In this document: positions 55,201-55,593 of the stretch, one piece after another
Layout of the letters: each line of letters begins with the position of its first letter
How positions within the stretch are numbered: the first letter of the stretch is position 1
DNA from: Escherichia phage RCIP0359
Sequence record: PV778520.1
Length of the DNA stretch: 59,541 nucleotides
Reading direction: 5' to 3' (one strand)
Notes under the pieces: model-generated
What the model was told of the DNA's origin: nothing
The model's database searches: none
Seen by the model: only the letters and a program-made list of their open reading frames with translations
Program-made: the position numbers and the translations under genes

Positions 55201-55593
55201 ATGCTATTAGTTGTCACCGGAGGTCGAGATTTTAAGCATGTGGAGTATATTTACGCTCAATTGGATAAGCTGCATATGCAAAGAAGGATAACCACACTTC
55301 GCCACGGTGACGCTGACGGTGTTGACCGGATTTGCGCACATTGGGCGGAGCGCAACGGTATTAAGACAGAAGCGTTCCCTGCCCCGTGGGACAATCTTTC
55401 CTTACCAAATACCAAGATACGGTATAACGCCAAGGGTGCTTATAATGCACAAGCTGGCGCTTACCGCAATCAATTAATGCTGGATACTGATCCCAAACCA
55501 GATCACGCTATTGTGTTTCCGGGCGGAGCTGGTACTATGGACATGTACAGACGGATTAAAGCATCCGGTATTCCTTACACATTAGCGGAGTAA
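55201..55593 (+). CDS. SLOG-superfamily (DUF2493/YspA-like, LOG/DprA-like Rossmann) protein
   Basis: 130 aa; N-terminal VVTGGRDF and C-terminal FPGGAGT motifs. Confidence 0.5.
   Translation: MLLVVTGGRDFKHVEYIYAQLDKLHMQRRITTLRHGDADGVDRICAHWAERNGIKTEAFPAPWDNLSLPNTKIRYNAKGAYNAQAGAYRNQLMLDTDPKPDHAIVFPGGAGTMDMYRRIKASGIPYTLAE

Follow-up and report, generated by a model that had tools for sequence, protein, structure and literature searches.

Escherichia phage RCIP0359 (sequence record PV778520.1; the window is the whole 59,541-nt stretch analyzed here) encodes at 55201–55593, on the + strand, a standalone 130-aa SLOG-domain protein of the YAcAr family (formerly DUF2493), which has the fold and the invariant pocket residues of its family and lacks the catalytic glutamate of LOG enzymes. 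We tentatively read this protein, with rather less than even confidence, as a non-LOG, DprA-like nucleotide-pocket binder that acts on DNA-linked nucleotides. The initial annotation of the gene had left it open whether such a protein binds or cleaves nucleotides; LOG-type cleavage is unlikely, the catalytic Glu position being occupied by Met115, and the pocket sequence suggests that the YAcAr protein binds instead of acting as a LOG-type N-glycosidase.

The open reading frame (ORF) runs from ATG to TAA, and its product begins MLLVVTGGRDF and contains the internal stretch AIVFPGGAGTMDM; a Shine-Dalgarno-like GGAG (55189–55192, +), read from the sequence, lies 8 nt 5' of the start codon. The product matched Pfam PF10686 over residues 3–64 (E = 4.9e-18; score 65.2 bits, gathering cut-off 28.2; the model spans only the N-terminal 66 residues of the phage protein) and PHROG 289 (E = 2.7e-23), well outside what chance would give, and PF10686 was matched by all 134 aligned homologues as well. 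The family name YAcAr stands for 'YspA, cpYpsA-related SLOG family'. NCBIfam and PADLOC searches with the SLOG protein gave no match, and the protein alone, used as query against PDB sequences, returned nothing; a PDB profile search with the family gave weak SLOG matches. AlphaFold2 (AF2), run with the 134-sequence alignment, produced a model of high confidence (predicted local distance difference test score, pLDDT, 97.3; predicted template-modeling score 0.89) with the topology β1-α1-β2-α2-β3-hairpin-α3-β4-α4-β5, that is, the Rossmann-like three-layer α/β fold with a parallel five-stranded sheet of SLOG domains. In a viral structure library the family was recovered with template-modeling scores up to 0.94; its members there are phage, giant-virus and archaeal-virus proteins, with names that included DUF2493, YspA-related SLOG, DprA-like and 'D29 Gp61'. 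The profile matches and the predicted fold bear out the SLOG/DUF2493-like Rossmann classification of the initial annotation, and the two motifs to which it had pointed, VVTGGRDF and FPGGAGT, coincide with the family's columns of highest conservation (G7, G8 and R9; F106, P107, G108, G109, G111 and T112).

The family is large and is carried by mobile elements. An exhaustive HMMER search with a threshold of E ≤ 1e-3 yielded 5,846 cluster representatives, most of which are standalone and 110–165 aa long. By tblastn, members were present in 568 of ~50,700 phage records, among them those of Klebsiella, Vibrio, Salmonella, Escherichia, Mycobacterium and Rhodobacter phages, and on 185 plasmids, of which 111 are conjugative. 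The RCIP0359 protein is a typical member of YAcAr/PHROG 289, with all family invariants present and the commonest architecture, a standalone domain of ~130 aa. Members are basic (median isoelectric point 9.1, above 8 in 71%). Two homologues (P0027 and P0059) are tandem YAcAr duplications, found by sequence inspection and not by Pfam, which suggest a two-pocket dimer as the functional unit.

Conservation was counted on the 134-sequence family alignment, in which some columns have ungapped totals of 132. Invariant or nearly so were G7, G8, R9, L21, G36, A38, G40, D42, W48, A61, W63, A85, G86, R89, N90 and M93 and, toward the C-terminus, F106, P107, G108, G109, G111, T112, D114 (84%) and M115. 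Both glycine loops of SLOG domains are thus present (G7-G8-R9 and P107-G-G-x-G111-T112), each position being at least 84% conserved. The G7-G8-R9 loop (55219–55227, +), which follows strand 1 and would be the counterpart of 'G-S/T/A-R' in DprA, aligns with GSR of Escherichia coli Smf (DprA) and GGH of E. coli PpnN; G7 and R9 occurred in 132/132 ungapped sequences, and position 8 was Gly in 126 and Ser in 5. At the start of helix 2, G36-D-A38-D-G40-V-D42 (55306–55326, +) parallels 'GLARGID' of DprA, was aligned to Smf by hhalign and hmmsearch, and holds in G40-V-D42 the GxD/E signature of the YpsA clade (G36 invariant, A38 at least 90%, G40 133/134, D42 134/134). Between strand 3 and helix 3 lies a β-hairpin insert (aa 64–84; 55390–55452, +; DSSP strands 73–76 and 79–82 in the model) that is missing in about one-fifth of the family, 23–36 of the 134 sequences being gapped over most of aa 66–80 and fewer at the edges. 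Helix 3 carries A85-G86-x-x-R89-N90-x-x-M93 (55453–55479, +), in which G86, R89 and N90 are invariant; judged by spacing and secondary-structure order, not by a structural alignment, R89-N90 would be the counterpart of DprA 'F/L/Y-x-x-R-N/D' and, for LOG, of the Arg within 'EKRLEAF'. The second glycine loop and the start of helix 4, F106-P-G-G-A-G111-T112-M-D114-M115 (55516–55545, +), resemble the PGGxGT of LOG, and G111 was found in 132/132 ungapped sequences. The hhalign comparisons with single PpnN and Smf sequences covered the N-terminal half only, and the C-terminal equivalences come from MAFFT --add and spacing.

Position 115 sets the family apart from LOG. In E. coli PpnN the loop reads FPGGVGTAEE, with E264 opposite M115 of the phage PGGAGTMDM; this position was Met in 121/134 sequences (90%), the acidic neighbor D114 being retained, and the PGGxGTxxE signature of LOG is therefore absent. 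The first loop also differs, GGR in the phage protein corresponding to GGGxxG in LOG. Because the catalytic Glu site is M115, the LOG-type phosphoribohydrolase mechanism is not available to the protein. In profile searches against DUF2493, LOG and DprA models, which the initial annotation had suggested, the phage protein matched DUF2493 and neither of the others (LOG PF03641, no match at E ≤ 1; DprA PF02481, unmatched). Among the 134 relatives PF03641 was matched weakly by 27 (best E = 2e-4, none reaching the cut-off) and PF02481 weakly, below threshold, by 13, which places the family between LOG and DprA by sequence.

With DprA, the order and spacing of motifs are alike: GSR...GLARGID...FPRRNRII...SGS in Smf and GGR...GDADGVD...AYRNQLM...GAGT in the phage protein, the N-terminal equivalences being recovered by hhalign, hmmsearch and MAFFT. 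The single-stranded DNA (ssDNA) signatures of DprA are 'G-S/T/A-R', which includes the pocket-opening Arg52, and 'F/L/Y-x-x-R-N/D', whose Arg143 and Asn144 act with Gly164 in holding a single base; R52E and R143E reduce affinity 315-fold and 173-fold, respectively (Wang et al., PMC3950713). The invariant R9, R89 and N90 and the conserved G111 match the cores of both motifs, so that a DprA-like pocket appears plausible. The phage protein is smaller than the DprA domain (130 aa versus ~205 aa) and lacks the SAM and winged-helix accessory domains. ShosA, a DprA-like SLOG protein, is a close structural match to it, and the ShosTA system was tied to DNA damage and repair in the ShosA paper.

In the mechanism that we propose, the YAcAr protein, a minimal standalone SLOG domain that is basic and probably dimeric, would hold one nucleotide unit in its conserved pocket. 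R9, on the loop after strand 1, would gate the pocket, and R89-N90 of helix 3 together with G111 of the glycine loop would grip the base and the sugar-phosphate. The ligand would be a nucleotide within ssDNA at intermediates of phage replication, recombination or repair, possibly a modified nucleotide such as an ADP-ribosylated one. The tandem duplications fit a two-pocket unit of this kind.

Fusions and neighbors across mobile elements point more often to DNA transactions than to ADP-ribose (ADPr). Among the 150 best homologues, Pfam confirmed fusions to DUF4326 (two proteins) and to a DnaG-type zinc ribbon, and a NADAR fusion match remained below threshold. Published SLOG fusions involve the SF1B helicase HelB (ICP1; Pseudoalteromonas phage H101) and DciA, and those listed for viral SLOGs involve helix-turn-helix, HNH, exonuclease, helicase and guanylate kinase domains (Iyer et al., 2022). 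A degenerate DNA scan of IMG/VR for F-P-G-G-x-G-T-x-D-M returned 120 loci; SLOG genes were verified in 73 of them, which form 68 non-redundant clusters. The 102 immediate same-strand neighbors in these viral loci showed no dominant partner; they included three helicase domains, three integrases and two sigma factors, and one each of VapE, Pol III alpha, DnaG zinc ribbon, Prim-Pol and Endo VII. NADAR, Macro and DUF4326 were not among the top neighbor families, and an iterative search of the 1,830 ORFs in the 73 loci found zero NADAR and one DUF4326, itself a fusion. Elsewhere, the SLOG gene of mycobacteriophage Texage lies near a DnaB-like helicase gene, and that of an Azospirillum prophage overlaps a dCMP deaminase gene. 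A conserved block of alphaproteobacterial plasmids (CP039920.1, 1–5351; NZ_CP139705.1, 1–5348) encodes a DarB-like methyltransferase/helicase, a DUF7146+Toprim primase and a ~313-aa protein with a C-terminal YAcAr domain (E ~1e-31) and an N-terminal ~190 aa that has no Pfam match; the block resembles a conjugative leading-region arrangement.

The links of YAcAr SLOGs to NADAR and DUF4326 are real but rare. In phage AVIO78A of the sister genus Nonanavirus (MZ726797.1, 4001–4811), the gene of the 46%-identical SLOG homologue overlaps a genuine NADAR gene (E = 1.4e-22). Product names in that record are seemingly shifted by one gene, the SLOG being called 'swarming motility protein' and the NADAR 'ParB-like protein'. 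Phage NADARs strip ADP-ribose from guanine in DNA and thereby defeat DarTG1.

The source phage belongs to Seuratvirus (Queuovirinae), and the SLOG gene is part of the common gene content of its relatives. A 3.1-kb segment spanning the gene matched 34 phage records at 93–97% identity, nearly all of them Escherichia Seuratvirus (including CAjan, Seurat and the BASEL phages KurtStettler, SeppeHuegi, WildeMaa and GottfriedDienst), and 32 of the 34 encode the protein at ≥95% identity. An identical protein (100%) is bas21_0086 (gp86) of BASEL phage GottfriedDienst/Bas21, where it is labeled 'hypothetical protein'. The presence of the gene in RCIP0359 is therefore ordinary, as that of a member of a catalogued family identical to a deposited protein. 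More distant relatives (66–70% identity) retain the surrounding gene order, in which the SLOG gene precedes a homologue (177 aa) of its downstream neighbor, then genes for a protein of 141 aa and an HslV-like protein of 154 aa, and then endolysin, holin, spanins and terminase. Given this retention and conserved order, the gene sits in a syntenic core block of the clade, upstream of the lysis genes, and not in a variable island; the 'accessory island' of the initial annotation does not hold.

Both roles that had been anticipated for the protein, interference with nucleotide-based host signaling and DNA processing, are the leading hypotheses after the analysis. Counter-signaling by viral SLOGs has already been predicted in print: they were assigned mainly to a YpsA-like clade and proposed to degrade or sense immune signals resembling cyclic ADP-ribose (cADPR), SLOG domains being experimentally uncharacterized in an ADPr-processing role (Iyer et al., 2022). 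Applied here, the protein would counter immunity based on nicotinamide adenine dinucleotide (NAD) and ADPr, either as a ThsA-type decoy that sequesters a soluble ADPr signal or toxin, e.g. the 2'/3'cADPR of Thoeris-like systems, or as its hydrolase. We consider this a possible but less probable role. The ThsA STALD SLOG, which senses 3'cADPR, is fused to a SIR2 effector, whereas the phage protein stands alone, and both ThsA SLOG and YpsA (DUF1273) belong to Pfam families other than YAcAr. With the LOG catalytic Glu missing, hydrolysis of an ADPr signal would have no known mechanism. The near absence of NADAR, Macro and DUF4326 around viral SLOG genes also speaks against it, as does the window itself, whose proteins include no NADAR and no DUF4326, the neighbors of the SLOG gene being proteins of no assigned function and peptidase-like genes. 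Further, the gene belongs to the syntenic core and is not patchily distributed, our literature search found no report of a phage SLOG sponge or hydrolase, and the proven role of phage NADARs concerns ADP-ribosylated DNA, not soluble signals. A DNA-linked ligand is favored over a soluble ADPr signal because the family is basic and the gene core, and we rate it slightly likelier because DNA-transaction partners outnumber ADPr partners in our samples. The two readings converge if what the protein recognizes in ssDNA is a modified nucleotide, whether ADP-ribosylated or altered in another way.

Several observations nevertheless weigh against a DprA-like binder of DNA-linked nucleotides. The best structural match of the phage protein was YpsA; a link to NAD/ADP-ribose has been drawn for the YpsA clade, in which the GxD/E signature is held to bind the substrate (PMC6459960). 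The aromatic platform of DprA (Phe140) is replaced by the invariant Gly86 in the YAcAr family, the DprA Pfam model fails to match the phage protein and reaches threshold in no relative, and the R89-N90 equivalence has the basis given above. The ThsA SLOG domain, of the same fold, showed no DNA binding in an electrophoretic mobility shift assay. The SLOG gene lies outside the replication module, in the rightward block that precedes the lysis genes, and fusion or adjacency of YAcAr to NADAR and DUF4326 does occur. Finally, viral SLOGs are taken to act on soluble ADPr derivatives by Iyer et al. (2022), after which our literature search found no paper with an experiment on a phage YAcAr/DUF2493 protein.

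Two other roles appear improbable. A nucleotide-pool enzyme, i.e. a PpnN/LOG-like N-glycosidase or transferase that acts on free (deoxy)nucleoside monophosphates and reshapes the pool during infection, would account for the LOG-like PGGxGT loop, the weak Lysine_decarbox matches in 27/134 members, the acidic D114 beside the missing Glu and the helix 3 Arg shared with PpnN, and also for the occasional adjacency to dCMP deaminase and nucleotide kinase genes and the published guanylate-kinase fusions. We nonetheless hold it unlikely: Met replaces the catalytic Glu in 90% of the family, 0/134 members reach the LOG Pfam cut-off, nucleotide-metabolism neighbors are sporadic, and the family is basic, which metabolic LOGs are not known to be. 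Still more improbable is a modulator of host physiology like Bacillus subtilis YpsA, e.g. an inhibitor of cell division through ligand-dependent assembly. The structural match to YpsA would fit such a role, but the phage protein belongs to YAcAr and not to the DUF1273/YpsA Pfam family, the gene context here offers no support, and the YpsA phenotype is bound to GpsB coupling in Firmicutes (PMC6459960).

A more specific form of the DNA-linked reading, which we regard as a long shot, is that YAcAr proteins form a widespread and hitherto unrecognized class of minimal DprA-like readers, whose activity is to flip a modified nucleotide, e.g. one with an ADP-ribosylated base, out of ssDNA. If so, a single activity would explain the helicase, primase and DciA links together with those to NADAR and DUF4326; YAcArs of phages and conjugative plasmids would shield or mend ssDNA that is entering the cell or being replicated, in the face of DNA-modifying defenses such as DarT; and the enlarged pocket, with Gly86 where DprA has its aromatic platform, would be an adaptation to a bulky adduct.

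YAcAr is among the commoner unknowns of mobile elements, occurring in phages, plasmids, giant viruses and an archaeal virus. Labels given to homologues vary ('GTP-binding domain', 'phosphoribosyltransferase', 'DprA-like', 'DNA processing protein DprA'), and the CAjan record calls the same gene 'putative DNA binding protein'; the functional labels on phage homologues and on PHROG 289 are guesses that contradict one another. A decision between a DNA-handling and a counter-signaling role would settle these public annotations. The value of the RCIP0359 gene is that, through BASEL phage Bas21 on E. coli K-12, it offers a tractable entry to a very common uncharacterized family.

The next gene downstream (55597–56067, +; phrog_25149) starts 3 nt past the SLOG stop codon and encodes a Cys/His-rich protein of 156 aa, with which the SLOG gene is probably co-translated. 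The pairing is conserved in the relatives at 66–70% identity, and this tight coupling suggests that the 156-aa protein is a partner of the SLOG protein. It is confined to Seuratvirus-like phages, carries an invariant Cys/His cluster (E-A-C-H-C-A-K-S-L-H-H-L-R-G-C-H-Y) and has no Pfam or PDB match; its AF2 model (pLDDT 55) was too poor for fold comparison. On sequence grounds (BLASTP E = 7.8; no Pfam or PDB match) we rejected the possibility that it is a divergent NADAR. Two putative peptidase genes follow, one (56070–56495, +; phrog_4049) whose product matches Peptidase_C39 weakly at its N-terminus (E = 0.037) and the other (56740–57204, +; phrog_1040, E = 5e-32) HslV/proteasome-like, its product beginning MTTIAF, consistent with an N-terminal Thr nucleophile. 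The SLOG gene, which had been placed two genes upstream of this protease pair, is thus separated from it by one gene.

DarA of phage P1 (27904–29823, −) was considered as a hidden SLOG and rejected, as it showed only a 19-residue glycine-loop match and its Pfam domains are DarA_N and DarA_C only. The matching segment, aa 522–540 (NIAFPGGAGTEKMVQSMIN), closely resembles the glycine loop of SLOG domains (63% probability in hhalign), probably by coincidence or as a remnant.

In the RCIP0359 genome the structural genes lie on the + strand and the replication module and 7-deazaguanine cluster on the − strand, followed by a rightward block of small genes that leads into the lysis cassette. A scan of the window for promoters and terminators gave counts no higher than the shuffled expectation; terminator-like GC-rich hairpins (+) are found at 54040–54055, after the 53746–54024 gene, and at 57991–58004, after the endolysin gene. 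The 7-deazaguanine DNA-modification cluster (28318–33904, −), which is expected in a Queuovirinae phage, comprises a DpdA/TGT-like gene (28318–29235), FolE, QueD, QueC and QueE, and its proteins are 78–99% identical to their counterparts in phage KS_A3.
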